A stretch of DNA of 24,000 bases from Marinobacter sp. S0848L. GTDB taxonomy: Bacteria > Pseudomonadota > Gammaproteobacteria > Pseudomonadales > Oleiphilaceae. The DNA lies in the NCBI RefSeq assembly GCF_023016065.1, contig NZ_JALKAQ010000004.1, positions 16,462-40,461 on the forward strand, read 5' to 3'. Of the stretch, positions 1,213 through 18,932 are shown in pieces. The position numbers were made by a program, and so were the translations under genes. Positions within the stretch are counted from its first letter, which is position 1, and the number at the start of each line of letters is the position of its first letter. The notes under the pieces were generated by a model. The model was not told where the DNA came from. It saw nothing but the letters and a program-made list of their open reading frames with translations, and searched no databases.

Positions 1213-1911
1213 CTAACCGGCCAGCCTGGGCAAAAACGATGTATCCATCCAATAGCGCTTGAGATTGGCCTCATCGACCAGTACGGGCATTGTTTCCTGG
1301 TGAATATGATTAGTTGGATCAAACCACAGGTTATCGCTTCGGAATACATGAAGCTCACCGGTTTGAGGGTGCTGCCACTGGCAGACAATGCGGAACGGGT
1401 TACGACCGTTCACGGTCAGACTGGTGTTTTGCTCAACCGACGAAAATGTTGCGAGCACCTCGGTGCCGTGATCTTTCAGGTAAGCCTGTGAGCGGCTCTT
1501 CTTCCAACCAAACAACAGCATCCCGCCGCCAATGGCGCCAAACACGAGCCCCATACCTCCAAGAATCATGGGCAGCCCCCACAGCGAGAAGAAACTGTTG
1601 ATGCGAGCACTCTCCGGAACCGACGGCTCGTAAAACACAGACACACGCTCGCCGCGACTGAACGACGGCGGATTTGAGCCGGAACGCGACCGGAACTCGA
1701 TCTCCCTACCACGGATATCCTCGAAAACCACCACCGGATAATAGGTTGTCGAATCGCTGGAGCGAGAGCGCTCCAGGTCAGTGACCGTGCCCGTGGCTTC
1801 CGTGGCTCGCTCGATAAATGACACCGTACTGCTGTAACTCATCACCGCACCAACAAGCATACCGGCGCCAATGAGTGTGAAGACGTATTTGAGGATATTC
1901 AGGGTTTTCAA
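1213..1911 (-). CDS. DUF3592-type membrane protein with two beta-rich modules, each following a TM segment
   Basis: 232-aa ORF with a TTG start at 1911, preceded by AAGGA about 8 nt upstream. Order is N-terminal TM (FTLIGAGMLVGAVM), a module ATGTVTDLERSRSSDSTTYYPVVVFED..GREIEF.S....PPSFSRGERVSVFYEP typical of DUF3592, a second TM pair, then a second related module (HGTEVLATFSSVEQN...FRIVCQWQHP.TGELHVFRSD). Confidence 0.7.
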   Translation of the reverse strand: MKTLNILKYVFTLIGAGMLVGAVMSYSSTVSFIERATEATGTVTDLERSRSSDSTTYYPVVVFEDIRGREIEFRSRSGSNPPSFSRGERVSVFYEPSVPESARINSFFSLWGLPMILGGMGLVFGAIGGGMLLFGWKKSRSQAYLKDHGTEVLATFSSVEQNTSLTVNGRNPFRIVCQWQHPQTGELHVFRSDNLWFDPTNHIHQETMPVLVDEANLKRYWMDTSFLPRLAG

Positions 1912-1944: not shown

Positions 1945-2556
1945 TTAAGCCATCTGACCAATTTCGGCGCCTTCGGGAACGAGAGAAGGCATTTGGGGCT
2001 CACGCCCCTTCAAGATATTTGCCAGACGCCGCTCTCGTACCTTGTGAACGGAGGAATCAAACCTGAGTACCTTGAGGGGCACCGGGTCACCCTCCTGCAA
2101 CTTGTCGAACGTCGCCAGCTTACTCAGATAGAAGGCCCCACTGTGATTTTGGCCATCAAACTGAAAATCAAACTCAATCATAAGGTTACACTGATAATGC
2201 CCTTCCCCCTGAGGCTCATTTCGATGATCGTATTCCTGATGAAACTGACAATCCGCTTCTTTTTTGGTCAGTACGCCGTCCACCTCTACACCGTGCTTCC
2301 GTAGCAAGGCCTGGCCGTAGAGGTAGCTGGTACCTGAGTAAGTCGTGACGATAGCAAGCAGAACCATCCCAGCGCCCATCAATGCGAAGAAACCTCCCGC
2401 AATCATGGCACCCCAGTCGCCAAAGTCGACGTAGAAAATGCCACCACCCACAGCGGTGGTGATTATTCCTACGCACAGCATCGTTAGCATAATGCCTAGG
2501 TCAGATTTTATTGCTGACCACAGGAGCGGCCAATCAATGTGGTTTTTTCTGAGCAT
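1945..2556 (-). CDS. membrane protein with C-terminal DUF3592-like module (partial paralogue of 1213..1911)
   Basis: 203-aa ORF with an ATG start. It has two or three TM helices (GIMLTMLCVGIITTAVGGGIFYV, GAMIAGGFFALMGAGMVLLAIV). The following segment LLRKHGVEVDGVLTKKE...MIEFDFQFDGQNHSG...LQEGDPVPLKVLRFD resembles the second module of the neighbouring protein (YLKDHGTEVLATFSSVE...). No obvious SD upstream. Confidence 0.6.
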   Translation of the reverse strand: MLRKNHIDWPLLWSAIKSDLGIMLTMLCVGIITTAVGGGIFYVDFGDWGAMIAGGFFALMGAGMVLLAIVTTYSGTSYLYGQALLRKHGVEVDGVLTKKEADCQFHQEYDHRNEPQGEGHYQCNLMIEFDFQFDGQNHSGAFYLSKLATFDKLQEGDPVPLKVLRFDSSVHKVRERRLANILKGREPQMPSLVPEGAEIGQMA

Positions 2557-3846: not shown

Positions 3847-5964
3847 CTAAGCTATCCCGCATATTCGACAGGCATTAAACGGGTCCATTTGCACTGGTCT
3901 ACCCGCGATCGCGACTTTACTCCTCAGCTCATAAATGAATAACCTCTGATCAGTTTCACCTTTTCCAACGAACTCAAATAGGCGATCAAGGTTCTCTTGA
4001 AAATCCTCCCGATTGGCAACACCCTCAGGATTCATCCGAAACACCGTTTCTTCGAAATCACGCCAACTTTGAAATGAAGCAAGGATCTCGCTCACAGCCT
4101 GAATCTTTATGTCGTTACTACTCCAGATATCAGGTGTAACCCACCAATCATAGAGAATATTGTCCAAGACAGTGCCTTTGACTTCAGGAGGGGAATGCAA
4201 GAACACGGCGTCTTCCTTAAGAGCGAGATCATTGACAACGTTTTGGGCAAGCTCAGCCCCACCCCGCTCGCGCTTTCGTCCTACGAATACATCATCCACA
4301 AACTCTGCAAGCGCGGTCACCACGCTCGTCGCAAACTCATGAGCTGCCGCAGCAGCAGTGAGGCCACGCCCCAATGCGAACAAACTCATTCGTTTATACC
4401 AGTCGAACGCTTCCGTATCAGGATCAAATAACTCCAAATACCTGAAGTCCACATCAAGCAATGCGTTATAGACAAAATGAAGCATCCGCATAATTTTCTG
4501 TGTTTCTACTTCGAGAAGAAAACTTCCTGCGGCTCCGGCACCCAAAACGAGCCCTGCGTGGGCATTGCAATAAAACTTTCCTGTGGTTTCACTGAAGTGC
4601 AATCGAATATTAAACTCAGCTCCTGCACCAAACGCAGCCTCGACCTTCTTCCCGATACTGCAGAGCTTATCCCACTCTCGCGCTTCAGTTAGAACATCTC
4701 TCCAGCGCAGCTCACCTGAAACTTCACACCCGCCTCGGATACCCGCAAATACACCACCTTCTATCTCTGCTTTCTGCCCGTTCTGCCTAGCAGCAATTCC
4801 CTTTATAGTCGGGAGGCCATCGGTAGTAGATACATGAACATTACCGGCAACAAGTGCTGAGGCTCCGGCAAATCCCGAAAGCGAAGCCATAATCGCCGCC
4901 TGAAAATGCCCCAGCGAAGCAGTTCTCCGCTCGCCGTCCCAACCGCCAACCCGGTAAGGGATGTGAATTTCAGACCGATTATTCACAGGAAACGCCTGCT
5001 CTATACCCACTTTTCCTTGAGCCAGAGCAAACTGCCCTTCTAACTTCGCTTGAAAGTGAACTTTGCCTTTTCGCGGATCAAACTCACCAGAAGCACTTCC
5101 CCCCGCAGCAAAACGCATAAACTGAGCCTCTGCCGAAGCATCAAAGCCAGTTTCGTCGATCGCTTTTTGTCTTGCCTCGGCATCACCCCAGATCGACCAG
5201 GACGCCTCATCGTAAAACTTGTTCAATGTCGTCATGAGGGCACCATTCTGATCAGGCTCCCACAATTTTGCGTTGAACTTGATGTTTAGCTCACTTCGAA
5301 TAGCATCTCGAAGCTTTGCCGGATCAACACCATTCTCGGTTAACCATCCATCACTCCGCGCCCGGTCTCTTGCCGCTATGGAATAACGTCGCTGGTGATT
5401 CTTCATTTTGTCAGAGCGCACAAACGTAACATGTCTATTGCCGGCCAATCTTTTGATCTCAGTGATCGGCGGTATGCTCTGCATATCGTTAGTAAGAACG
5501 GAGCGAGCTTCCAGTTCTTCAACTAGGCGCTCTTTCTCTTCCTGCACTTCTGACAGCAACCGGCCTTCACCATCAGTCGGACTCAATTCGGAAACCTCGT
5601 CACCGTCGTTGAGCTCATCCAGCCTTTCATAAAACTCGTTTATCGGGCCGCAAACAAACTCTTCCTCCTCAAGCCACTCGGAGAGTTGCTCTTCCGTCAA
5701 CAGGATCAACTCATCAGAGCCGGTGACATGGACAACGTCCACAATTTCTTCTGCACATGGTGGTTCCTGAGCTATTTGCCCTACCTCGCAGCTGGAGAAA
5801 TCGGCATCGTTTGCAGCGGGAAGTTTGAGCCGTTGCCCGGGGAAAATCCGATCAGGATTATCGATATCCGGATTCAGTCTCAGGAGGCTGCTTAGCGTGG
5901 TTTGGTGTCGCTGTGCAATTGCACTGAGGGTGTCGCCGGACTTGACGGTATACTCGGAACTCAT
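3847..5964 (-). CDS. LysM-domain protein of unknown function; candidate T6SS effector loaded through the DUF4123 adaptor and VgrG
   Basis: 705-aa ORF whose ATG overlaps the DUF4123 stop by 4 nt (ATGA). No Sec signal peptide is evident. An N-terminal LysM domain is followed by an acidic linker, a Gly/Ala-rich core and a roughly 200-aa C-terminal region I do not recognise. The position immediately 3' of a DUF4123 gene is the canonical effector slot. Confidence 0.65.
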   Translation of the reverse strand: MSSEYTVKSGDTLSAIAQRHQTTLSSLLRLNPDIDNPDRIFPGQRLKLPAANDADFSSCEVGQIAQEPPCAEEIVDVVHVTGSDELILLTEEQLSEWLEEEEFVCGPINEFYERLDELNDGDEVSELSPTDGEGRLLSEVQEEKERLVEELEARSVLTNDMQSIPPITEIKRLAGNRHVTFVRSDKMKNHQRRYSIAARDRARSDGWLTENGVDPAKLRDAIRSELNIKFNAKLWEPDQNGALMTTLNKFYDEASWSIWGDAEARQKAIDETGFDASAEAQFMRFAAGGSASGEFDPRKGKVHFQAKLEGQFALAQGKVGIEQAFPVNNRSEIHIPYRVGGWDGERRTASLGHFQAAIMASLSGFAGASALVAGNVHVSTTDGLPTIKGIAARQNGQKAEIEGGVFAGIRGGCEVSGELRWRDVLTEAREWDKLCSIGKKVEAAFGAGAEFNIRLHFSETTGKFYCNAHAGLVLGAGAAGSFLLEVETQKIMRMLHFVYNALLDVDFRYLELFDPDTEAFDWYKRMSLFALGRGLTAAAAAHEFATSVVTALAEFVDDVFVGRKRERGGAELAQNVVNDLALKEDAVFLHSPPEVKGTVLDNILYDWWVTPDIWSSNDIKIQAVSEILASFQSWRDFEETVFRMNPEGVANREDFQENLDRLFEFVGKGETDQRLFIYELRSKVAIAGRPVQMDPFNACRICGIA
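4504..5133 (-). other. Gly/Ala-rich core with repeated short amphipathic segments (aa ~278-487 of the 705-aa protein)
   Basis: Recurrent segments are FAAGGSASGEF, GHFQAAIMASLSGFAGASALVAGNVHV, EIEGGVFAGIRGGCEVSGEL, VEAAFGAGAEFNIRLHF and HAGLVLGAGAAGSFLLEV. They show small-residue spacing of the GxxxG/AxxxA type. I recognise no catalytic motif. Confidence 0.4.
5821..5955 (-). other. LysM peptidoglycan-binding domain (aa 4-48 of the 705-aa protein)
   Basis: YTVKSGDTLSAIAQRHQTTLSSLLRLNPDIDNPDRIFPGQRLKLP matches the LysM consensus (Y.V..GDTL..IA......L...N........I..GQ.L.IP). Confidence 0.85.
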
Positions 5965-6758
5965 GAGGCAACTCCATATGCCAAACGTTTATCCAATTCT
6001 TTCAAGCGCATACCTGCTGGCATTTCAGAACTGGACAAAATAGCCTGAAATTCTGGATGCTCAATGCGCTCTCCGTGCACTACAGCTAGCTCTGCAAATC
6101 GGCTTACGTCTTTCTCTGTATGGAACCCAAACGAGTTGGCCTGCTGAATCAACGCGTTCACTCTGGATGTATCGTTTAGACAAAGATATCGGGCCAACCT
6201 GGTTGCGAACTCTTCTCTGGCCATCGCTGCCAGGGCCTCAATATGGTGATCAGCAAGAACAAACCAGCCTTCCTCAGCAGCCTGCCTGGCTGGTCTCTGG
6301 CCATCTGCACTGAATCGCCGCCATTGACCATCATTTTGGAACGCCAGCCAGTCTGTTATCGGGCCACTGAATTGGTCTCGCTCCAGATCACTGAACGCTC
6401 CCATCAACCTGACCAGCTGTTTTGGGGAATAGAACCTGAGATAGGAATAACCCCCATCAGGCAACTTGACGCTCAACAGGCTTCGTAAATGATCGGCCAA
6501 TACGGGCAGTATCTCGTCTGCCATCAGGACAACGGCATGGTCCTGCCACGTTCCCTGCTCTGACCATATTCGTGATGATGGCGAAGGCTTTACAAGGCAG
6601 GGGCTCACCTCGATGACCGCCTCATGGGGTGTACCAAGGTACAGGTATTCTAGTTCCGGCTGATCATCGTATTCATAGATGAATCTGGGAGCATCAAATA
6701 CCGCACCATCAATCAGTATGTAAGCTCGCTTAACGGCCTTCTCATCCAAGCCCATCAT
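5961..6758 (-). CDS. DUF4123 domain protein (T6SS effector adaptor/chaperone, Tap-1/TEC family)
   Basis: 265-aa ORF. YILIDGAVFD...YLYLG.PHE..IEVSPCLVKPS...HLRSLLSVKLPDGGYSYLRFYSPKQL..L...F....RDQFSGPITDW fits the DUF4123 pattern. It has 4-nt ATGA overlaps with vgrG upstream and the 705-aa gene downstream. Confidence 0.8.
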   Translation of the reverse strand: MMGLDEKAVKRAYILIDGAVFDAPRFIYEYDDQPELEYLYLGTPHEAVIEVSPCLVKPSPSSRIWSEQGTWQDHAVVLMADEILPVLADHLRSLLSVKLPDGGYSYLRFYSPKQLVRLMGAFSDLERDQFSGPITDWLAFQNDGQWRRFSADGQRPARQAAEEGWFVLADHHIEALAAMAREEFATRLARYLCLNDTSRVNALIQQANSFGFHTEKDVSRFAELAVVHGERIEHPEFQAILSSSEMPAGMRLKELDKRLAYGVAS

Positions 6759-8875
6759 GCAATGTCACCCTCACATGCACAGGCTTCCATGGCACAAGAA
6801 CCATCCGGTTGGCGGCCGCATTGCTTCACAAGAGCAACATCCTTTTTAGCTGCGGACTTCAACGCGGGCACCGAGGCTACAGAAGGGCCCGCTGTCGCTC
6901 TGGTGTCATTTTCCGCCACCTGCACCGGCTCATCGTTGGCCGTTAACTCGCTCAAACTCTCGGGCAACAACGGCCCCGTAACCCCAACCCCGCTACCACT
7001 CCCAGGCCCACCCCCTGAATTCATCCGCACCAAAGGCCCTGACACCGTCACCCCACTCGGGTCTACCTTCACAAAGCTGCCACCGGCCTTAAGCGTCACC
7101 TCAGCCCCGGCTTCGATCACGATTTTCATACCGGCCTTGTGGTGGATTTCGGTGCCGGCTTCCACCAGCTGGTTTTTGCCCTGCTTACTGTGGTGGCTGC
7201 CGTTTACGGTGAGACTGTAGTCGGCACCGATGCTCTCGCGATGTTCGCCATCTGTGGTGTGGTGGCTGTTGCCTTTGGTGTGGCTGAAGCGGTTGTTCAC
7301 CACCGTCAGGTGGCTGTCGTTCCTGATGACTTCGGTGCGGTTATTTTCCGTGAGCAGGTCCAAGTCTTTTTGGGCATGGACGTAGATTTGCTCCTGACCA
7401 GCTTCGTCTTCAAAGCGCAGTTCGTTGCTGCCCTCACCCTTATGGGTTTTGGTTTTTAATGTGGTGCGGGTTTTGTGTTCCGGCAGCGCGTACGGTGGTG
7501 TGTTGGTGGCGTGGTAGGTTCGGCCGGTGATGATGGGCTGGTCCGGGTCGCCATCGAGGAAGCTGACAATCACTTCGTTGCCAATTCTCGGTAGTGCCAT
7601 AAAGCCATACTGACCGCCAGCCCAGCCTTGGGAGACGCGCAGCCACGCGCTGCTGTGTTCATCGTTTTTGGAGTAGCGGTCCCAAGGGAACCGCACTTTT
7701 ACGCGGCCGTATTGGTCGCAGTGAATCTCTTCCCCTTCGGGGCCGGTCACGATGGCTATCTGGGGGCCGTCCATCACGGGTTTGTGCTCACAGAGGGCGC
7801 GCCAGGTTTTATCGGCGGGGATGGCGGTGAACTCGTTGGTGTAGCTGGTCGGTTCGCTACCGCCCTCTTCTTCCAGCGCTTGCGGTTGTTTACCGGTGTG
7901 GGTGATGGCGGTCAGCAGCCATTCCCGGTTCAGACTTTGGCTGTCGTGGTCTTGCAGTTCCACTTTGGCTCCGGCGGCAAAATCCGGGCGGTTGCTTTTA
8001 CCTTTGGCGACGGAGGCATCGTTTCTGAGTGCGTCTAATCGGGTTTGGGAAAACGGCTGGCCACTGGCGTCGGCTTTGTAGCGACCGGGGTATTCGTAGT
8101 GCTGGTAGTCTTCCCGGTGGTTTACACCGCCGGCACTCTGTTCGTGCATCAGAGCGTAGGCGGGGTTCTTGAAGGTGTAGTCTTTCATCGCCACCGATGA
8201 AGCGCGCACCCTTTCTTCGTAGGCGAAGCTGTAGATGCAGGCCTGCTGGGTGCTGCCGCCGGCTTTGGTGTTGCATTCTACCGGGTCTAATTTGGGCGCA
8301 TCACCGTGATGATCGGCAATGACTAAGGCCGGCTGCTCTTCACCGTCCACGCTGCCGTGTTGGTAGCGGTAGTGCCAGCCTTCTTCGGCAGCGAGTCGTT
8401 CCAAGAATTTCAGGTCGCTTTCGCGGTGCTGGACGCAGTATTCCCGCTCTTCGGGCGCGCGTTTCAGATCGAACACCGTATCCACAATGCCCCGCTCTTC
8501 CAACAGCGTGCGCACAATGGCATCGGTGGTCTGGGCCTGGAAAATACGACTGTTGTGCATTAAGCCCAAACGCCACACCGGAGGCTGAATCACCACTTCG
8601 TAATGGGTGCGGCGGTGGCCAGTGTTGCCTCGTACGAATTCGTTCACCACGCCGGTGAACCGACGCAGGGGCTGGCCGTCTTGCCACACCACCAGATCCA
8701 CCGGCTGTTCCAATACATCCGCGGCTTGCACGTCCGGATCGGTGCTGGCCAGTTTCAAACGGCCATGGGAGAGCGTGGACAAACCTTCGGTGAGCACAAA
8801 GCTGGCAACCACAAAGTGGTCTGAGGGGAATTCGCCAACACGGGCGGTGAACTGCAATCCGCTTGCCTGGGGCAT
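6755..8875 (-). CDS. vgrG: type VI secretion system tip protein VgrG (no enzymatic extension; short Cys-rich C-terminal tail)
   Basis: 706-aa ORF. The N-terminus MPQASGLQFTARVGEFP...FVV.SF...EGLS....G.L.LAS, the gp27-like region (RIFQ..T...IV..LL.E.GI...F.L), the gp5 OB-fold (GPQIAIVTGPEGEEIHCDQYGRVKVRFPWDR...SSAWLRVSQGWAG..YGFMALPRIGNEVIVSFLDGDPDQPIITGR.Y) and the beta-helix repeats are classic VgrG. Confidence 0.93.
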   Translation of the reverse strand: MPQASGLQFTARVGEFPSDHFVVASFVLTEGLSTLSHGRLKLASTDPDVQAADVLEQPVDLVVWQDGQPLRRFTGVVNEFVRGNTGHRRTHYEVVIQPPVWRLGLMHNSRIFQAQTTDAIVRTLLEERGIVDTVFDLKRAPEEREYCVQHRESDLKFLERLAAEEGWHYRYQHGSVDGEEQPALVIADHHGDAPKLDPVECNTKAGGSTQQACIYSFAYEERVRASSVAMKDYTFKNPAYALMHEQSAGGVNHREDYQHYEYPGRYKADASGQPFSQTRLDALRNDASVAKGKSNRPDFAAGAKVELQDHDSQSLNREWLLTAITHTGKQPQALEEEGGSEPTSYTNEFTAIPADKTWRALCEHKPVMDGPQIAIVTGPEGEEIHCDQYGRVKVRFPWDRYSKNDEHSSAWLRVSQGWAGGQYGFMALPRIGNEVIVSFLDGDPDQPIITGRTYHATNTPPYALPEHKTRTTLKTKTHKGEGSNELRFEDEAGQEQIYVHAQKDLDLLTENNRTEVIRNDSHLTVVNNRFSHTKGNSHHTTDGEHRESIGADYSLTVNGSHHSKQGKNQLVEAGTEIHHKAGMKIVIEAGAEVTLKAGGSFVKVDPSGVTVSGPLVRMNSGGGPGSGSGVGVTGPLLPESLSELTANDEPVQVAENDTRATAGPSVASVPALKSAAKKDVALVKQCGRQPDGSCAMEACACEGDIA

Positions 8876-12534: not shown

Positions 12535-12631
12535 CCGAAACCCTTCTTATCTATGAACGTTTTGTATGTTGAATGATAAGCCGGAGCGCTCTAGGGTTAA
12601 GGAAACCAAACAAACAAGAAAGGGGTCTGCA

Positions 12632-13033
12632 ATGAACGGCATTCGACGCTATGCCAAGCAGTTTTCGCTTGTGATGGCCATTCTGATGGCTTTTGCCACC
12701 ACCTTTTCAGTCTCTGCCCATGCTGGCATGGTCGGGACCGGTGAGTTGATCCAGCAACAACAGGTCAACCTCGACCGCCAGCAGTTGCTGAACATGCTGG
12801 AACAGCAGGACGTTAAAGAAAAACTCGCCGAACTCGGTGTCAGTGAAGACCAGGTGGCGGAGCGAATTCAGAACCTTACGCCCACCGAACTGGCCGATTT
12901 TGAGCAACAGCTGGCCGAAGCCCCCACCGGTGAAGGGGTGGTCGGGATCATTGTTTTATTCCTGTTGGTGTTCATCATCACCGACATGCTGTGTGCCACT
13001 AACCTATTCTCTTTCATCAATTGCATTCGCTAA
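12632..13033 (+). CDS. PA2779-family-like small exported protein (signal peptide, Gln/Glu-rich helical middle, hydrophobic C-terminal tail)
   Basis: 133 aa from ATG 12632, with a GAAAGGGG SD about 6 nt upstream. The signal peptide is SLVMAILMAFATTFSVSAHA|G. The middle reads LGVSEDQVAERIQNLTPTELADFEQQL. The C-terminal TM-like segment is VVGIIVLFLLVFIITDML. It is paired with a PA2778-like peptidase. Confidence 0.6.
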   Translation: MNGIRRYAKQFSLVMAILMAFATTFSVSAHAGMVGTGELIQQQQVNLDRQQLLNMLEQQDVKEKLAELGVSEDQVAERIQNLTPTELADFEQQLAEAPTGEGVVGIIVLFLLVFIITDMLCATNLFSFINCIR

Positions 13034-14040
13034 TTCAACCTCTTTTCAAGACCGCACTCTTTCGATGCAGCAGACTGGCAGCCCTTCTCGGGCTGCTTCT
13101 GCTGGTCGGCTGCGCAAGCACACCGCCCTGGCCCACCCCGCCCGATGCCAATCAGATGGTGGCGTCAGGTCAGCAGTTACTACAGGACGTACCCTTCTAT
13201 CCGCAGGAAAAATACCAATGTGGTCCGGCCTCTTTGGCCACTATGCTCAATAGCCAAGGCCTGAGCACCGACCCGGAAATCCTGAAAGAACTGGTTTATT
13301 TGCCGGGCCGGGAAGGCTCGCTGCAAGTCGAAATGGTCGCCGGTGCGCGGTCACACAACATGGTCGTTTACCCGTTACAACCAAACATCGAAACACTGCT
13401 GGCAGAAGTCTCCGTCGGCAACCCGGTGCTGGTAATGCAGAACCTGGGGTTCGATTGGTGGCAACAGTGGCATTTTGCCGTGGTTGTCGGTTACGACCAT
13501 CAGGAGGAAACCCTGATACTCAATACCGACACACGCAAACATCACCGCCAACCCTATAAGGTATTTGATGCCACCTGGAGCCGTGCCGAACGTTGGGCAG
13601 CAGTGATCCTGCCGCCTGATCAGTTGCCTGCAACGGCAGAGCTTTTGCCCTGGTTACGGGCCGCCCACGATCTGGAAAGTACCGGGCATACACTTGCTGC
13701 GGAAACGGCCTACCAAACAGCCAAACAAAACTGGACGGACGAGCCTTCGCCGCTTCTGGCTCTGGGGAATCTGGCCTACGGCCAGAACCGCTTTAACGAT
13801 GCCGCCAACTACCTGCGCATTGCCACCGAACGGTTTCCGGAGTTTGCCGAAGGCTGGAATAATCTGGCTTACGCCTTGTCCGCATCGGGCTGCGCCAAAC
13901 AGGCTGATCAGGCAATGTCCTGCGCTGCCAAGTTAGCCGGTGACCGCTTCCCGGTCGAGAACTTCCACCCGGATGCGCGCTCATCCGACACCAAGCCCTC
14001 ATGCAAAAAATTACCGCTTTGCCCGATTGAAACCGAGTAA
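13021..14040 (+). CDS. PA2778-family-like cysteine peptidase (C39-like papain fold) with C-terminal TPR repeats; lipoprotein
   Basis: 339 aa with a TTG start at 13021, overlapping the upstream stop by 13 nt. The lipobox is LLLLVG|CAS. The candidate Cys nucleophile lies in QEKYQCGPASLATML and the candidate His in WHFAVVVGYD. TPR-like helices follow (AETAYQTAKQ....LLALGNLAYGQNRFNDAANYLRIATERFPEFAEGWNNLAYAL). Confidence 0.65.
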   Translation: MHSLIQPLFKTALFRCSRLAALLGLLLLVGCASTPPWPTPPDANQMVASGQQLLQDVPFYPQEKYQCGPASLATMLNSQGLSTDPEILKELVYLPGREGSLQVEMVAGARSHNMVVYPLQPNIETLLAEVSVGNPVLVMQNLGFDWWQQWHFAVVVGYDHQEETLILNTDTRKHHRQPYKVFDATWSRAERWAAVILPPDQLPATAELLPWLRAAHDLESTGHTLAAETAYQTAKQNWTDEPSPLLALGNLAYGQNRFNDAANYLRIATERFPEFAEGWNNLAYALSASGCAKQADQAMSCAAKLAGDRFPVENFHPDARSSDTKPSCKKLPLCPIETE

Positions 14041-14900: not shown

Positions 14901-15923
14901 ATGGATATGTCGACGCCCCTCGCATTGGAGGTGCCGATCATTTCGGCACGTTACGCTCGCCGTTTTGTTCATTTTATGGAAAAGCGCGGCGTAAAACGAA
15001 ACACCATTTTGACGAAAACCGGCATTACCGATGAACTGCTCAACAATCCTGAAGCCAGCCTGTCTATGACGCAGGTGCTTGAGCTGCTCCGACAGGCCGA
15101 CTGGCTAATGGCCGATGAGCGTGCGCCCTTTGAATTTGGCAAACAACTGGACCTGCCCTGCCACGGACTTCTAGGGTTCGCCATGCTGGAACAAGAAAAC
15201 CCCAGGCGCCTAGTTAGCATGATCGTACAATACTTGCGCGTTGGGCTTCCGCTCATGGATATGGAACTGGCATCTACGGGCTCCACCTTTCGCCTGAAGC
15301 TGATCGACACCTGGGGCGTCGACGATCTTAAAGCCTGTCTGGTGAAAATCTACATGGGCAGTATTTATCGTGTTTCGTGCCAGGTCTGTAGCCACTTCAC
15401 CTTCCGGTTCGATTTCCCTAGCAACCTTCCGCTGGAAAACTGGGAACTGCTCGCACCAAATTGCGAGTTCATCTTTGACGCCAACACCAACGAAGTCACC
15501 ATCCCCTTAAAAGGCGCGCCGGTTCGAAAAGACGATTCTAATCTGGAATTTCTGGTCGCGAGAACCCGCCACTCCCAGTCACAAAAACGGGTGGAATGTG
15601 ATGAAACCGTGCAACAGGTCCGGGAACTGATTATGAGTCAGCCCGGCCGCCCCTGCACCACCCAAAACCTTGCTCGCCGGCTGGACATGAGCCCAAGAAC
15701 ACTTCGCCAGCACTTGGCGAAGGCCGGCACATCATTCCGCGAGCTTCGGAACGAAATACGTGAAAGCTTTGCCACTTTGTATTTAAAAGACACCAACGTA
15801 TCGCTGGAATCCATCTCTGAAAAACTGGGGTTCAGTGATCAAGCCGGCTTCACCAAAGCGTACCGATCCTGGACAGGGCAAACCCCCGGTGATGTCCGAA
15901 AGAAAGCCCGAAACAAAAAGTGA
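14901..15923 (+). CDS. AraC family transcriptional regulator (N-terminal effector-binding domain, C-terminal double HTH)
   Basis: 340 aa. The C-terminus TQNLARRLDMSPRTLRQHLAKAGTSFRELRNEIRESFATLYLKDTNVSLESISEKLGFSDQAGFTKAYRSWTGQTPGDVR is a canonical AraC/XylS HTH pair. Confidence 0.85.
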   Translation: MDMSTPLALEVPIISARYARRFVHFMEKRGVKRNTILTKTGITDELLNNPEASLSMTQVLELLRQADWLMADERAPFEFGKQLDLPCHGLLGFAMLEQENPRRLVSMIVQYLRVGLPLMDMELASTGSTFRLKLIDTWGVDDLKACLVKIYMGSIYRVSCQVCSHFTFRFDFPSNLPLENWELLAPNCEFIFDANTNEVTIPLKGAPVRKDDSNLEFLVARTRHSQSQKRVECDETVQQVRELIMSQPGRPCTTQNLARRLDMSPRTLRQHLAKAGTSFRELRNEIRESFATLYLKDTNVSLESISEKLGFSDQAGFTKAYRSWTGQTPGDVRKKARNKK

Positions 15924-16165: not shown

Positions 16166-17986
16166 ATGAAACTCAGTAACCTCAATACCAACGTGCGCAA
16201 GCTCGGCCCCGCCGTAGCCGCTGCAGCACTGATGGCTGGTGGTGCGAGCAACGCAGCAGCAGAACAAGTCTCAACCGAACTGGCCTTTGAATGTCCGTTT
16301 CCGCTGATTGGCACCCAACCCATTCGCGCGCAAATCAGTGCTGACATTCCCGCCGTAGCATCTGTGGGTGAACCAACCCCACAATTTGAAGTGACTGCGA
16401 TTACCGTGGTCAATGACGATGCCCGCACCGGTTTGAAACTCGTTGGCTCCGAAACCGTCGAAGGCGTCGCCACAAGCACAAACAACATCATTACGGCTGG
16501 CCGTGCTCTGGAGCAAATTGTCACCCTGCAGATTCCGCCTACCGCTATTCCTGCCGAAACTGGCGAGTTCAATGTGCCAGCCTCGGGTGTGGCGCCCGAA
16601 ATCCTGTTCACCGCCGATGACATCGGCCAGGCTGAAATTCGCGTTGGCGCTTTACAGCTCGAGCTGATCGCGCGTACCGCGAACGGTGACATTGCTCCAG
16701 CACCCATCGGTGAAATCACCACCGACTGTGTGCAGCTGCCGAACCAGAACAACCTTCTACAAACCATCACCGTCGCTGGTGAGGTCGTCGAAACACCGCG
16801 CATCAGCGTGGATACTCAAGAACTGGCCTTTGGTTCCGTACAGGCAGGTTTGAGCGCTCAGCAGTCTGTTTCTATCCTCAGCACCGGCAGTGCCGCGCTG
16901 GGTATCAACAACATCAGCATCAGCGGCCCTGATGCGCAACTGTTTACCCAAACCAGTGATTGCGGCTCTTCCCTGGCTCCAGATGCATCTTGTAGCGTTA
17001 ACGTAACCTTCGCACCAAGCACCGACGGCACGCGTAACGCCACTCTCACCATTGAGTCTACCGATGCCGACAAGCCAAGCATCGACGTTGCCCTATCAGG
17101 CCGAGGCACTCTGGCACCTACACCTGAAATTGCCGTTACCCCGGGTTCTGTAGATTTGGGCCGCGTCCAGGTTGGCACCAGCAAATCAGAGCAAGTGAGC
17201 ATTGCCAACAACGGCAACGCCGCTTTGCAGATCGACAGCATTGCGCTGACAGGCTCCAATGCCAGCGACTTCACCCAAACCAACAACTGCACCACGGTCG
17301 CTGCGGGTGCTAGCTGCTCTGTCGAGCTGAACTACACAGCGGGCGCTGCTGGCGTGAGCACCGCAGCCCTGGTGATCCGCTCCAGCGATACCGAAAATGC
17401 CGAAGTGACTGTACCTGTCACCGTTGAAGCCTTTGAAGAACCCACAGGCGGCACTGAGCTTGAGCTGCTATTGGGCCTTGAAGGTTCCACTCTAATCGCC
17501 GCGAATGGTGGCAGCCTGCCACTGAACGGCACTATCGCCACGTTGCTTGATCTGGCCTCTGGTACTTTCGAAGCAGACACTCAGGTGAACCCAACGTCTG
17601 GCAACTTCACCATCAAGGTACTGTGGAGCAAGATGCACGCAGCGGCCAACGTTGAATTCGAGCAAGCCGGGCTGACCACCGGCTCTCTGGTCGATGGCAA
17701 GCTGACTGCTAACTCCCCGCTTTACGTGAAAGTGCCCAAGGTTGCGATCAAACTCTTCGGCCTGCCAGTGCGCATCGGTGGGGGCGATCAGTGCCGCACC
17801 AGCACTCCGGTTGATATTCAGCTGACAAGCCCCGAAGGCTCAAACTTCTCGCCAGCAACCGGCGGCAACGTAACCGGTGTTTACGACCTGCCACCGCTTG
17901 AGAACTGTGGCCTGCTGACCAGCGTGTTGAACAAGTTCATGTCTGGCCCAGGCAACACCATCAACCTGAACCTGACGCCACAATAA
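16166..17986 (+). CDS. secreted multidomain protein: DUF6801-like N-terminal domain, two tandem choice-of-anchor-D-like Ig-type domains, uncharacterised C-terminal domain
   Basis: 606 aa with an AGAGGA SD 7 nt upstream. The Sec signal is AAAALMAGGASNAAA|EQ. The N-terminal domain FECPFPLIGTQPIRAQISADIPAVASVGEPTPQFEVTA...TVEG resembles what I recall of DUF6801. There are two roughly 100-aa repeats with the pattern FG.V..G.S....V.I.N.G.A.L.I..I...G.....F.QT..C...L....SC.V.V.F.P. Confidence 0.75.
   Translation: MKLSNLNTNVRKLGPAVAAAALMAGGASNAAAEQVSTELAFECPFPLIGTQPIRAQISADIPAVASVGEPTPQFEVTAITVVNDDARTGLKLVGSETVEGVATSTNNIITAGRALEQIVTLQIPPTAIPAETGEFNVPASGVAPEILFTADDIGQAEIRVGALQLELIARTANGDIAPAPIGEITTDCVQLPNQNNLLQTITVAGEVVETPRISVDTQELAFGSVQAGLSAQQSVSILSTGSAALGINNISISGPDAQLFTQTSDCGSSLAPDASCSVNVTFAPSTDGTRNATLTIESTDADKPSIDVALSGRGTLAPTPEIAVTPGSVDLGRVQVGTSKSEQVSIANNGNAALQIDSIALTGSNASDFTQTNNCTTVAAGASCSVELNYTAGAAGVSTAALVIRSSDTENAEVTVPVTVEAFEEPTGGTELELLLGLEGSTLIAANGGSLPLNGTIATLLDLASGTFEADTQVNPTSGNFTIKVLWSKMHAAANVEFEQAGLTTGSLVDGKLTANSPLYVKVPKVAIKLFGLPVRIGGGDQCRTSTPVDIQLTSPEGSNFSPATGGNVTGVYDLPPLENCGLLTSVLNKFMSGPGNTINLNLTPQ
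16796..17428 (+). repeat. two tandem ~100-aa intragenic domain repeats (aa ~211-314 and ~320-421)
   Basis: Repeat 1 is PRISVDTQELAFGSVQAGLSAQQSVSILSTGSAALGINNISISGPDAQLFTQTSDCGSSLAPDASCSVNVTFAPSTDGTRNATLTIESTD. Repeat 2 is EIAVTPGSVDLGRVQVGTSKSEQVSIANNGNAALQIDSIALTGSNASDFTQTNNCTTVAAGASCSVELNYTAGAAGVSTAALVIRSSD. Confidence 0.8.
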
Positions 17987-18086: not shown

Positions 18087-18932
18087 ATGAAAAGCCTGAA
18101 AAAAACCGCGTTAGTGCTGGCTGTCGCTGGGCTCCCGTTAGTCGCCCACGCAGACCTCAAGCCACTCGAAGATGCTCACATGAGCAATGTGACCGGCCAG
18201 GCCGGCGTGACCATTGAGCTGGAAACAAAGCTCTCCATCGATGAATTCATCTACACCGATGAAGGCTCCTTCTCGATCAAAGACATCAAGATCGGGGGTG
18301 CCAATCGCACGGACCTGTTTGAAGAAATCACCGATTTCCGTGACATCATGTTCGGTGGAGCCAACGACCTCATTGATAACATCAAGATCGACATCGATGT
18401 TGAAGCAGACGGTGATGCCGTCATCAACATCTGGCCCCTCACCGCAGCGCCGATCGACTTTGGCGTAAGCACGGGTGACTGGACCCTGCAAGGTGCTACC
18501 GATTCCACTCTGCTCGCCAGCAACTTCAGCATGGTGGGTGCGTTTACCAAAGTGGGTATCCGCGTTGATACCGCCACCGACAAGCTTAACCTGAAGACTC
18601 AGGTTGGTATCTCTGATCTGGATGTCGATGTCGACTTCCTGGCTCTGGGTATTCGCGACCTGAAAATGACGGGTGCTGACTATATGGGCACCAAACTCGA
18701 CGGTTCTGCAGCGAACCCAAGTGTCCTGACTCTGGGCGCGAATATCGACATGGACGTGTATAAGTCCACCCGTTTGGCCGATCCCACCCAAGACGCTCTG
18801 GCGATCGATCTGAATACCTTTGCGGCAGACATGTCGATTGGTGATGTATTGGTTGGCGGAACCTCCATCGGGTCCGTCATGCTAGACAACCTGGTGGTTG
18901 ATAACACCCAATTGCGGATTTACGGTCACTAA
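18087..18932 (+). CDS. DUF6160-like secreted protein (FilA-like N-terminal motif)
   Basis: 281 aa. The signal peptide is KKTALVLAVAGLPLVAHA|D. The conserved-looking N-terminal motif LKPLEDAHMSNVTGQAGVTIE is followed by an acidic, Asp/Ile-rich sequence of beta-strand character. It lies 100 nt downstream of the 606-aa gene. Confidence 0.6.
   Translation: MKSLKKTALVLAVAGLPLVAHADLKPLEDAHMSNVTGQAGVTIELETKLSIDEFIYTDEGSFSIKDIKIGGANRTDLFEEITDFRDIMFGGANDLIDNIKIDIDVEADGDAVINIWPLTAAPIDFGVSTGDWTLQGATDSTLLASNFSMVGAFTKVGIRVDTATDKLNLKTQVGISDLDVDVDFLALGIRDLKMTGADYMGTKLDGSAANPSVLTLGANIDMDVYKSTRLADPTQDALAIDLNTFAADMSIGDVLVGGTSIGSVMLDNLVVDNTQLRIYGH

Follow-up and report, generated by a model that had tools for sequence, protein, structure and literature searches.

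A LysM-bearing candidate effector and an FGE-fold lipoprotein of Marinobacter as a probable new Tse3–Tsi3-type pair, with family-level constraints on the mode of action

Tse3 of Acinetobacter baumannii ATCC 17978 is a potent T6SS (type VI secretion system) effector that kills E. coli, and its immunity protein, Tsi3, has an FGE fold, with PvdO, FGE and EgtB ranking highest among its structural homologues, and protects the cell by binding Tse3 (Lopez et al. 2021, J Bacteriol 203:e00281-21; bioRxiv 10.1101/2021.05.21.445229). The homologues of Tsi3 are mostly encoded in arrays, often of four genes and often on the strand opposite to the tse3 homologue, and they are present in Klebsiella pneumoniae NTUH-K2044 (Lopez et al. 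2021), the T6SS-1 cargo of which is called the 'LysM gene' in another paper. Tse3-type effectors and FGE-fold immunity proteins have been reported in thousands of genomes, including those of Acinetobacter and Klebsiella. For the Tse3-type toxin, no mechanism, curated family model or structure exists, and a paper of late 2025 still listed Tse2 of A. baylyi as being 'of unknown mechanism of action'. The present analysis concerns a stretch of 24,000 nucleotides from Marinobacter sp. S0848L (contig NZ_JALKAQ010000004.1, positions 16,462 to 40,461), referred to below as the window, and within it an open reading frame (ORF) for a candidate Tse3-type toxin together with the adjacent gene for an FGE-fold lipoprotein.

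The effector and the lipoprotein of the window are probably a new Tse3–Tsi3-type pair of this already known family. In both systems, an effector linked to vgrG, with no domain that can be recognised in its toxin part, is accompanied by an immunity protein of the FGE fold (PF03781) which is devoid of the catalytic cysteines. Immunity genes form arrays in relatives of the window effector, and in the relatives from Vibrio and Aliivibrio the immunity gene is located on the opposite strand. The Tsi3-type array of K. pneumoniae adjoins a member of the window core family, defined by amino acids (aa) 161–705 of the effector, and such core-family genes adjoin Tsi3-type genes in Klebsiella, Cronobacter, Citrobacter, Vibrio, Aliivibrio, Pseudomonas and Marinobacter. 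The differences are that A. baumannii Tse3 has 1001 aa, no annotated LysM domain and no DUF4123 neighbour, whereas the immunity gene of the window is a single copy on the same strand as the effector gene. Judged by the shared immunity type and synteny rather than by the toxin sequence, the window effector is likely a homologue of A. baumannii Tse3 (WP_001070510.1); Acinetobacter Tse3 was absent from two profile searches of a 5.8-billion-protein database, which were swamped by Marinobacter and OmpA sequences, respectively. The sequence-only reading of this gene had considered a new toxin family, which overstates its novelty, as the arrangement of effector and immunity genes matches the published type (Lopez et al. 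2021).

The genes for VgrG, a DUF4123 adaptor, the effector and the immunity protein constitute, in this order, a translationally coupled operon. According to the ORF coordinates in the window, the vgrG stop overlaps the adaptor start, and the adaptor the effector start, by 4 nucleotides each, and 13 nucleotides separate the effector stop from the start of the lipoprotein gene. The start codon of the effector is supported by homologues of 703–715 aa in many Marinobacter; identity is 100% with a protein of Marinobacter sp. S0848L and 98% with one of M. nauticus ATCC 49840. In the Marinobacter, Pseudomonas, Vibrio and Aliivibrio loci for which upstream DNA is available, the DUF4123 adaptor is conserved on the upstream side of the effector. 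The effector is regarded as T6SS cargo, as had been proposed from the sequence alone, because of this operon and because the core is fused to VgrG, PAAR or MIX in relatives. The gene very probably encodes an antibacterial T6SS effector, with the FGE lipoprotein as the antidote. Since housekeeping genes (SRPBCC, YebC, GATase) lie upstream of vgrG, the locus is an orphan vgrG island and not the main T6SS cluster. The guanine–cytosine content dips by only ~3–5 points across the effector and immunity genes, and scans of the locus for promoters and terminators returned site counts within chance.

The identity of the antidote is indicated by gene linkage. When the window proteins were compared by tblastn with 33 genome loci from GTDB species encoding a relative, an FGE-type gene was located directly 3′ of the core gene in all 31 loci extending past it (Marinobacter, Tamilnaduibacter, Bermanella and Pseudomonas). 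The DUF3592 genes, which the sequence-only reading had named as immunity candidates, are linked inconsistently. Because of this difference, the FGE lipoprotein, and not DUF3592, is identified as the cognate immunity protein. Two or three FGE genes stand in tandem in several of the loci, and arrays of two to five occur among relatives. In three loci (L008, 10839–11605; L017, 4842–6114; L019, 2169–4409), orphan effector fragments from the middle or C-terminal part are followed by further FGE-type genes. Such fragments indicate recombinational turnover of the C-terminal domain together with the immunity gene, and with the tandem FGE genes they represent classic immunity-island behaviour. L019 also contains a second, very divergent pair of core and FGE genes upstream of vgrG.

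More distant relatives, at 24–26% identity, were examined in loci of Vibrio, Aliivibrio, Cronobacter, Citrobacter and K. pneumoniae. On conjugative plasmids of Vibrio campbellii and Aliivibrio salmonicida, vgrG (in some cases preceded by hcp) is followed by the DUF4123 and LysM protein genes, with the FGE gene in the reverse orientation. In the plasmid-borne T6SS clusters of Cronobacter and Citrobacter, the order is vgrG, core protein (hidden Markov model (HMM) E 6e-76 and 4e-86), one or two FGE genes and PAAR. K. pneumoniae WRC19_AI1572C (L037, 1165–11983; a 1.04-Mb record filed as a plasmid) carries four FGE genes behind a 5′-truncated core remnant (HMM E 2e-82). Here, vgrG is now followed by a Pyocin_S-domain protein gene and two DUF6392 genes, ahead of the core remnant, and the effector seems to have been replaced while the old immunity array stayed behind. 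Immunity-type genes are also seen apart from the effector. V. campbellii LJC015 (L040, 9827–16055; a 2.06-Mb replicon filed as a plasmid) carries a tandem of five FGE-type lipoprotein genes, the signal peptides of which are nearly identical; they form an orphan immunity array with no core-family gene within ~10 kb on one side and ~5 kb on the other. A mobilisable plasmid of Acinetobacter sp. YH12138 (L036, 6915–10915) holds an orphan island of T6SS immunity type, composed of one complete and one fragmentary FGE-type gene, DUF6708, Sel1 and a fragment of an Rhs core, with no effector of the Tse3-type core family nearby.

The part of the toxin that the immunity protein recognises is suggested by co-variation. 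Among the Marinobacter alleles, the C-terminal domain is the most variable part of the effector, with a mean pairwise identity of 0.51–0.58, as compared with 0.68–0.76 for the beta region. Across 17 loci (136 pairs), the identity of the immunity proteins follows that of the C-terminal domain with a Spearman coefficient of 0.93, against 0.59–0.74 for the other segments, and in a multiple regression on the same loci the coefficient of the C-terminal domain is 0.74. Moreover, the orphan effector fragments keep the C-terminal end beside an immunity gene. Because of this co-variation and these fragments, the C-terminal helical domain is likely the binding site of the FGE lipoprotein.

The best match of the immunity protein in the PDB is PvdO (E 1e-16), followed by FGE. 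The location of the catalytic cysteines of FGE is known, in part from the Tsi3 literature. The alignment of the window protein to S. coelicolor FGE ends before the catalytic region, and its cysteines, namely Cys11 in the signal peptide, the lipobox Cys22 and two others (in EGYCAWL and GFRCV), include no closely spaced pair. The protein thus appears to lack the catalytic cysteine pair and is predicted to be a binder rather than an enzyme. A lipobox is found in ~24 of the 26 homologous immunity proteins examined. All six enterobacterial immunity lipoproteins have Asp at position +2, which reads CDQ in the three from Klebsiella, CDD and CDN in Cronobacter and CDQ in Citrobacter. In Enterobacteriaceae, Asp at +2 is a Lol-avoidance signal causing retention in the inner membrane. 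Such a signal would place the antidote of the enterobacterial lineage on the periplasmic face of the inner membrane, and hence the target at or near this membrane. Because the immunity protein is a lipoprotein and the relatives repeatedly carry peptidoglycan-binding modules, the toxin likely acts from the periplasmic side, in agreement with the site of action first proposed from the LysM domain.

The breadth of the family was assessed by searching the core against 1.84 billion representatives, which gave 397 clusters (at 50% identity) of relatives at E ≤1e-3 and 213 at E ≤1e-10. The core itself matched no entry of Pfam, NCBIfam or the PDB, and the public names of its relatives, including the clusters of 20 distant representatives, are merely 'hypothetical', 'LysM domain-containing' or 'OmpA family'. 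In a set of 50 diverse relatives, the core is fused to LysM (10), an OmpA-like domain (10), PG_binding_1 (2), VgrG (4), PAAR (3), DUF4280 (1) and VasX_N/MIX (1); some relatives are VgrG–PAAR–core fusions. Being joined to so many different modules, the core bears the apparent signature of a polymorphic and widespread T6SS toxin domain. A peptidoglycan-binding domain is present in 22 of the 50. In relatives of the OmpA type, which are ~1000–1100 aa long, the core HMM match splits at model position ~170 (aa 330 of the window effector), and the OmpA-like domain sits within 190–270 inserted residues, inside the core. Three unrelated peptidoglycan-binding folds thus seem to have been taken up in separate events, one being inserted midway along the toxin. 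Such independent recruitment would make peptidoglycan binding part of the toxin action and not a loading device alone, and tethering to peptidoglycan is therefore inferred to belong to the mechanism.

Within the effector, the sequence-only reading had recognised a LysM domain at aa 4–48, an acidic linker at aa ~85–155, Gly/Ala-rich segments at aa ~278–487 and a last part of ~200 aa without a familiar motif, and it had reported neither an enzyme signature nor a Sec signal. The LysM domain is confirmed by Pfam (Table 1). The acidity also stands, with 27.6% Glu and a net charge of −21 in aa 85–160. The term linker does not, as this part is a conserved and partly helical module, modelled with strands at 74–90 and helices at 91–115 and 139–153, the equivalent of which is present also in relatives without LysM. 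The module is probably the region by which the effector is loaded onto the adaptor or VgrG. The Gly/Ala-rich segments, among them the strings GFAGASALVAG and GLVLGAGAAG, both found in the protein, are borne out by composition and by conservation in the family. Gly and Ala contribute 14.8% each to aa 278–487 (29.6% together), while Gly accounts for 4–6% elsewhere in the effector. For the C-terminal part, the lack of a family match holds, and the description can be refined to that of a confidently modelled all-helical domain. A hydrophobic N-terminal signal was not found in the effector, in keeping with the reported absence of a Sec signal. The C-terminal tails of the effector (window 3850–3885, ...DPFNACRICGIA) and of VgrG (window 6758–6800, ...CAMEACACEGDIA) are similar and contain cysteines. 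A terminal CxxCG[IV]A is common to the closest effector relatives (P0124, P0199), and some of the LysM-less relatives begin with CxECG; the tail may be a metal or disulfide knuckle for spike loading.

The Gly/Ala-rich region holds nearly all family-invariant residues (R284, P326, G352, G367, F406, G408, W421, G446, G475, G477, G480). In 100 non-redundant members, less than 70% identical, G352, G367, G408, G446, G475, G477 and G480 are conserved at 94–100%. Because the five Gly/Ala segments coincide with the most conserved columns of the family, they appear to be functional rather than compositional noise. The residues conserved in at least 80% of these members comprise eleven Gly, three Pro, F406, F464, W421 and several Leu and Ala; the only polar ones are R284, E169 and E594, with no conserved set of His, Ser, Cys or Asp. 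The effector contains no GxSxG or HxKxxxxD motif, and no enzyme family in Pfam, NCBIfam or the PDB sequences is matched, even with a 106-sequence profile, which upholds the reported absence of an enzyme signature. No internal repeat is claimed for the beta region, for which self-comparison gave merely a weak signal (P 0.0016 over 55 columns).

The structure of the core was predicted by AlphaFold for aa 161–705 from a diverse 106-sequence alignment, at a predicted local distance difference test score (pLDDT) of 73 and a predicted template-modelling score (pTM) of 0.69. A first run on a Marinobacter-only alignment modelled the core poorly (pLDDT 53) and was used for the N-terminal part only, where the acidic module reached pLDDT ~70–77. 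The core model begins with a mixed alpha/beta part, continues with about nine strands at aa 274–486 and ends with a domain of about ten helices at aa 488–705. Four of the strands are 22–35 residues long, and in the family profile the strands alternate between hydrophobic and polar residues over long runs, with a period of 2 and not 3.6. An example is the strand 345–379, the two faces of which have mean profile hydropathies of +1.6 and −0.9. A known non-toxic fold, which had been named as the outcome that would refute a toxin, was not recovered for the core by profile search or, at significant level, by Foldseek, the best matches having E 0.036 in the PDB and 0.079 in BFVD. The weak PDB list consists mostly of pore-state MACPF/CDC proteins, gasdermin-like RCD-1, aerolysin-type toxins and TULIP/BPI lipid binders, and it should be read as 'long curved beta-hairpins' only, not as homology.

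Table 1. Operon genes and effector segments in the 24,000-nucleotide window.
Feature	Position in window	Strand	Evidence
VgrG spike protein, 706 aa, operon gene 1	6755..8875	-	TIGR03361 E 5.4e-184; Phage_GPD, Phage_base_V, Gp5_trimer_C domains
DUF4123 (Tap/Tec-type) adaptor/chaperone, 265 aa	5961..6758	-	PF13503 E 2.6e-22; weak Tla1 chaperone match
Effector ORF, candidate Tse3-type toxin, 705 aa + stop, ATG start, operon gene 3	3847..5964	-	
Probable immunity protein, FGE-fold (SUMF1/PvdO-like) lipoprotein, 312 aa	2895..3833	-	PF03781 E 3.1e-30; lipobox LISGC (Cys22)
LysM domain of effector, aa 5–49	5818..5952	-	PF01476 E 2.7e-17; PDB LysM matches
Conserved acidic N-terminal module, aa 51–160, short beta-hairpin + helices	5485..5814	-	charge, model, relatives
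Family-core start, aa 161–273, mixed alpha/beta, conserved E169 + SDKxKNH motif	5146..5484	-	
Gly/Ala-rich region, aa 274–487, modelled long amphipathic beta-hairpins	4504..5145	-	
C-terminal all-helical domain, aa 488–705, PPExKG motif aa 592–597	3850..4503	-	pLDDT mostly >90

The proposed mechanism consists of five steps. The DUF4123 adaptor would load the effector onto the upstream VgrG via the N-terminal LysM domain and the acidic module, as the gene order and published work on LysM and DUF4123 suggest. After firing, the effector would act from the periplasm of the target cell, a location to which the lipoprotein nature of the immunity protein points. There, LysM may tether the toxin to peptidoglycan, in the way that the core-inserted OmpA-like domain or PG_binding_1 may do in relatives; the recurrent and independent acquisition of these three kinds of module argues for such a step. 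The Gly-rich beta-hairpins and the helical C-terminal domain would then disrupt a membrane without catalysis, either by forming a pore or by permeabilising it, with the inner membrane as the most likely site; this is the weakest step of the scheme. Producer and kin cells would be protected by the membrane-anchored FGE-fold lipoprotein, which would bind the variable C-terminal helical domain and block the toxin, consistent with the co-variation and with the published binding by Tsi3.

The favoured reading, held with slightly better than even confidence, is thus a periplasm-acting, peptidoglycan-tethered and non-enzymatic toxin with a presumed membrane target. It is preferred because the conserved residues are Gly, Pro and aromatics, because amphipathic hairpins and a helical domain are modelled, and because of the C-terminal co-variation and the inner-membrane retention signal of the enterobacterial antidotes. 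The best available functional analogy is TseVF–TsiVF of Vibrio fluvialis, a different family compared here by description and not by sequence. It shares the module of hcp/vgrG, DUF4123, LysM-effector and immunity genes, and TseVF is toxic in the periplasm only, its C-terminal bundle of ~8 helices (toxic domain at TseVF 965–1141) permeabilising membranes (PMC12861213, 2026). In contrast to the window pair, TsiVF is TPR-like and not of the FGE fold, and TseVF has 1197 aa with a predicted transmembrane segment; its authors report no homology to other effectors (PMC12861213). A more specific proposal can be advanced only tentatively: the core would have a fold not described before and, anchored to peptidoglycan, would form pores by its beta-hairpins; among T6SS-delivered toxins it would be the first pore-former of the beta type, with the C-terminal domain as both the trigger and the site clamped by the FGE lipoprotein at the inner membrane. 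Beta-barrel pore-forming toxins (aerolysin/epsilon-toxin, MACPF/CDC, gasdermin-like RCD-1), the commonest class in the weak Foldseek list, resemble the modelled core in their long, amphipathic hairpins rich in small residues, but have no significant structural or sequence similarity to the effector.

Several observations weigh against a tethered, membrane-directed pore-former. The hairpin tips are modelled at low confidence, alternating hydropathy is equally normal in soluble beta-sheets, and the matches to pore-forming-toxin folds are non-significant, with E of at least 0.036 and template-modelling (TM) scores of at most 0.15 by query and 0.31 by target. The retention rule is readable in Enterobacteriaceae only, so the Cys-Gly-Glu-Asp start of the Marinobacter lipoprotein assigns it to no particular membrane. 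The co-variation may be explained in part by the adjacency of the C-terminal coding region to the immunity gene. As for the tether, LysM of T6SS effectors has an alternative documented role in VgrG binding (PMC10673891), and it is dispensable for the periplasmic toxicity of the analogous TseVF (PMC12861213). The Marinobacter, Pseudomonas and Vibrio loci have both LysM and DUF4123, whereas those of Cronobacter and Citrobacter have neither, a joint pattern which would fit a loading role of LysM as well.

Among the other explanations, a cell-wall enzyme of a new fold (muramidase- or lytic-transglycosylase-like, or acting on lipid II) is unlikely but has several points in its favour. In this case, catalysis by the helical C-terminal domain would rely on the near-invariant Glu594, and LysM or the OmpA-like domain would bring this domain to the substrate. 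Effectors that hydrolyse peptidoglycan typically carry modules for binding it, the antidote is periplasmic, of all segments it is the C-terminal domain that varies with this antidote, and E594 is conserved at 91% overall and invariant in cleaner sub-alignments. Effectors of this kind (A. baumannii Tse4/Tpe4 and Tae17, Burkholderia BRPE67_05220) likewise have an N-terminal LysM, which may bind VgrG, and are vgrG-linked, but they carry M23, NlpC/P60, amidase or lysozyme-like domains. In the window effector, LysM is the sole domain detected in Pfam, NCBIfam and the PDB sequences, with no M23, NlpC/P60, amidase, SLT or lysozyme domain, and no glycosidase, amidase or peptidase was matched there or by Foldseek. 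Furthermore, merely one or two polar residues are conserved, the PPE motif lies at a modelled helix N-terminus and is possibly purely structural, the beta region and not the helical domain is the most conserved in the family, and an inner-membrane retention signal, as seen in the enterobacterial antidotes, is unusual for inhibitors of peptidoglycan hydrolases. The beta region could alternatively form a TULIP/BPI-like sheet on helices, which would bind or extract phospholipid, lipopolysaccharide or the acyl chains of lipoproteins in the periplasm, upsetting the lipid balance of the envelope without opening a pore. A juvenile-hormone-binding protein as the top Foldseek match, the recurrence of SPLUNC1 and Der p 7, one strongly hydrophobic sheet face and the lack of conserved catalytic residues are compatible with such a lipid binder; the TULIP/BPI matches are all non-significant (E 0.04–0.7, TM ~0.1), and this explanation is considered quite improbable.

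The sequence-only reading had compared the Gly/Ala segments with the alpha-helical glycine zippers of depolarising toxins such as Ssp6, Tse4, Tse5-CT or VasX. The small-xxx-small spacing at aa 352–368 and 399–416 and the one relative with VasX_N/MIX upstream of the same core agree with this analogy, but it is not supported and is regarded as very improbable. No transmembrane helix is predicted in the effector (the highest 19-residue Kyte–Doolittle mean is 1.58, below 1.6), the motifs fall in beta-strands or turns in both models, the periodicity of hydropathy is that of strands, and the immunity protein is a lipoprotein, unlike the polytopic membrane immunity proteins of VasX, Tke5, Tse4 and Ssp6. 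The BTH_I2691 family (VasX, Tke5, Ptx2, Bte2; PMC13133200) does share several traits with the window effector, as its members are large antibacterial effectors dependent on VgrG and DUF4123, target membranes from the periplasm and in some architectures have LysM, PAAR or VgrG (PMC13133200). They are, however, mainly alpha-helical, with transmembrane helices, a colicin-like region and integral-membrane immunity, and the family model NF041559 (BTH_I2691/VasX) matched neither the effector nor 59 relatives; VasX_N was not matched in the effector by Pfam or NCBIfam. A colicin-like pore domain in the C-terminal helices was also considered and rejected, as neither Pfam nor Foldseek supports it and a hydrophobic helical hairpin is missing. 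Finally, the gene product could be a non-toxic secreted accessory protein or co-effector which loads something else onto VgrG, in the manner of the stand-alone LysM protein Kalk_10460, which is not itself toxic and connects VgrG with the true effector (PMC10673891). The chance of this is close to negligible, given that no further effector gene follows in the operon, that the immunity gene is dedicated and diversifying, with arrays and orphan copies, that relatives have the core in direct fusion with VgrG or PAAR, and that Tse3-type effectors kill prey.

Other genes of the window were also inspected. Downstream of the immunity gene, after a gap of 338 nucleotides, two small membrane proteins are encoded: a 203-aa protein with two transmembrane segments and no Pfam match (1945–2556, minus strand), which weakly resembles the DUF3592 protein (BLASTP E 5e-4), and the DUF3592 protein itself, also with two transmembrane segments (1213–1911, minus strand). 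Both were rejected as immunity proteins, as most of the related loci lack them and they occur only in some Marinobacter loci, at variable position and strand; they are probably flanking genes. On the plus strand, a gene for a DUF6627 small membrane protein and one for a C39-peptidase-like/TPR lipoprotein-like protein (12566–14040) overlap by 13 nucleotides and look like a conserved pair. An AraC-type regulator (14901–15923) precedes the genes for a 606-aa secreted protein with DUF6801 and two Ig-like (HYDIN/VesB/ASH-type) domains (16166–17986, plus strand) and for the DUF6160 protein that comes next (18087–18932, plus strand); the latter two are unrelated to the effector.

As a T6SS effector/immunity island, the window locus is ordinary, while the constraints derived for the family are new. 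They comprise the limits of a ~545-aa core, the three kinds of peptidoglycan-binding module, one of them inserted in the core, the lack of a catalytic residue set, the variable C-terminal domain and the retention signals of the immunity lipoproteins. Such constraints narrow the search for the mechanism of Tse3-type toxins to one that is non-enzymatic, on the periplasmic face and probably membrane-directed. If the core is indeed a beta pore-former, this would also explain the action of A. baumannii Tse3 and probably that of A. baylyi Tse2.

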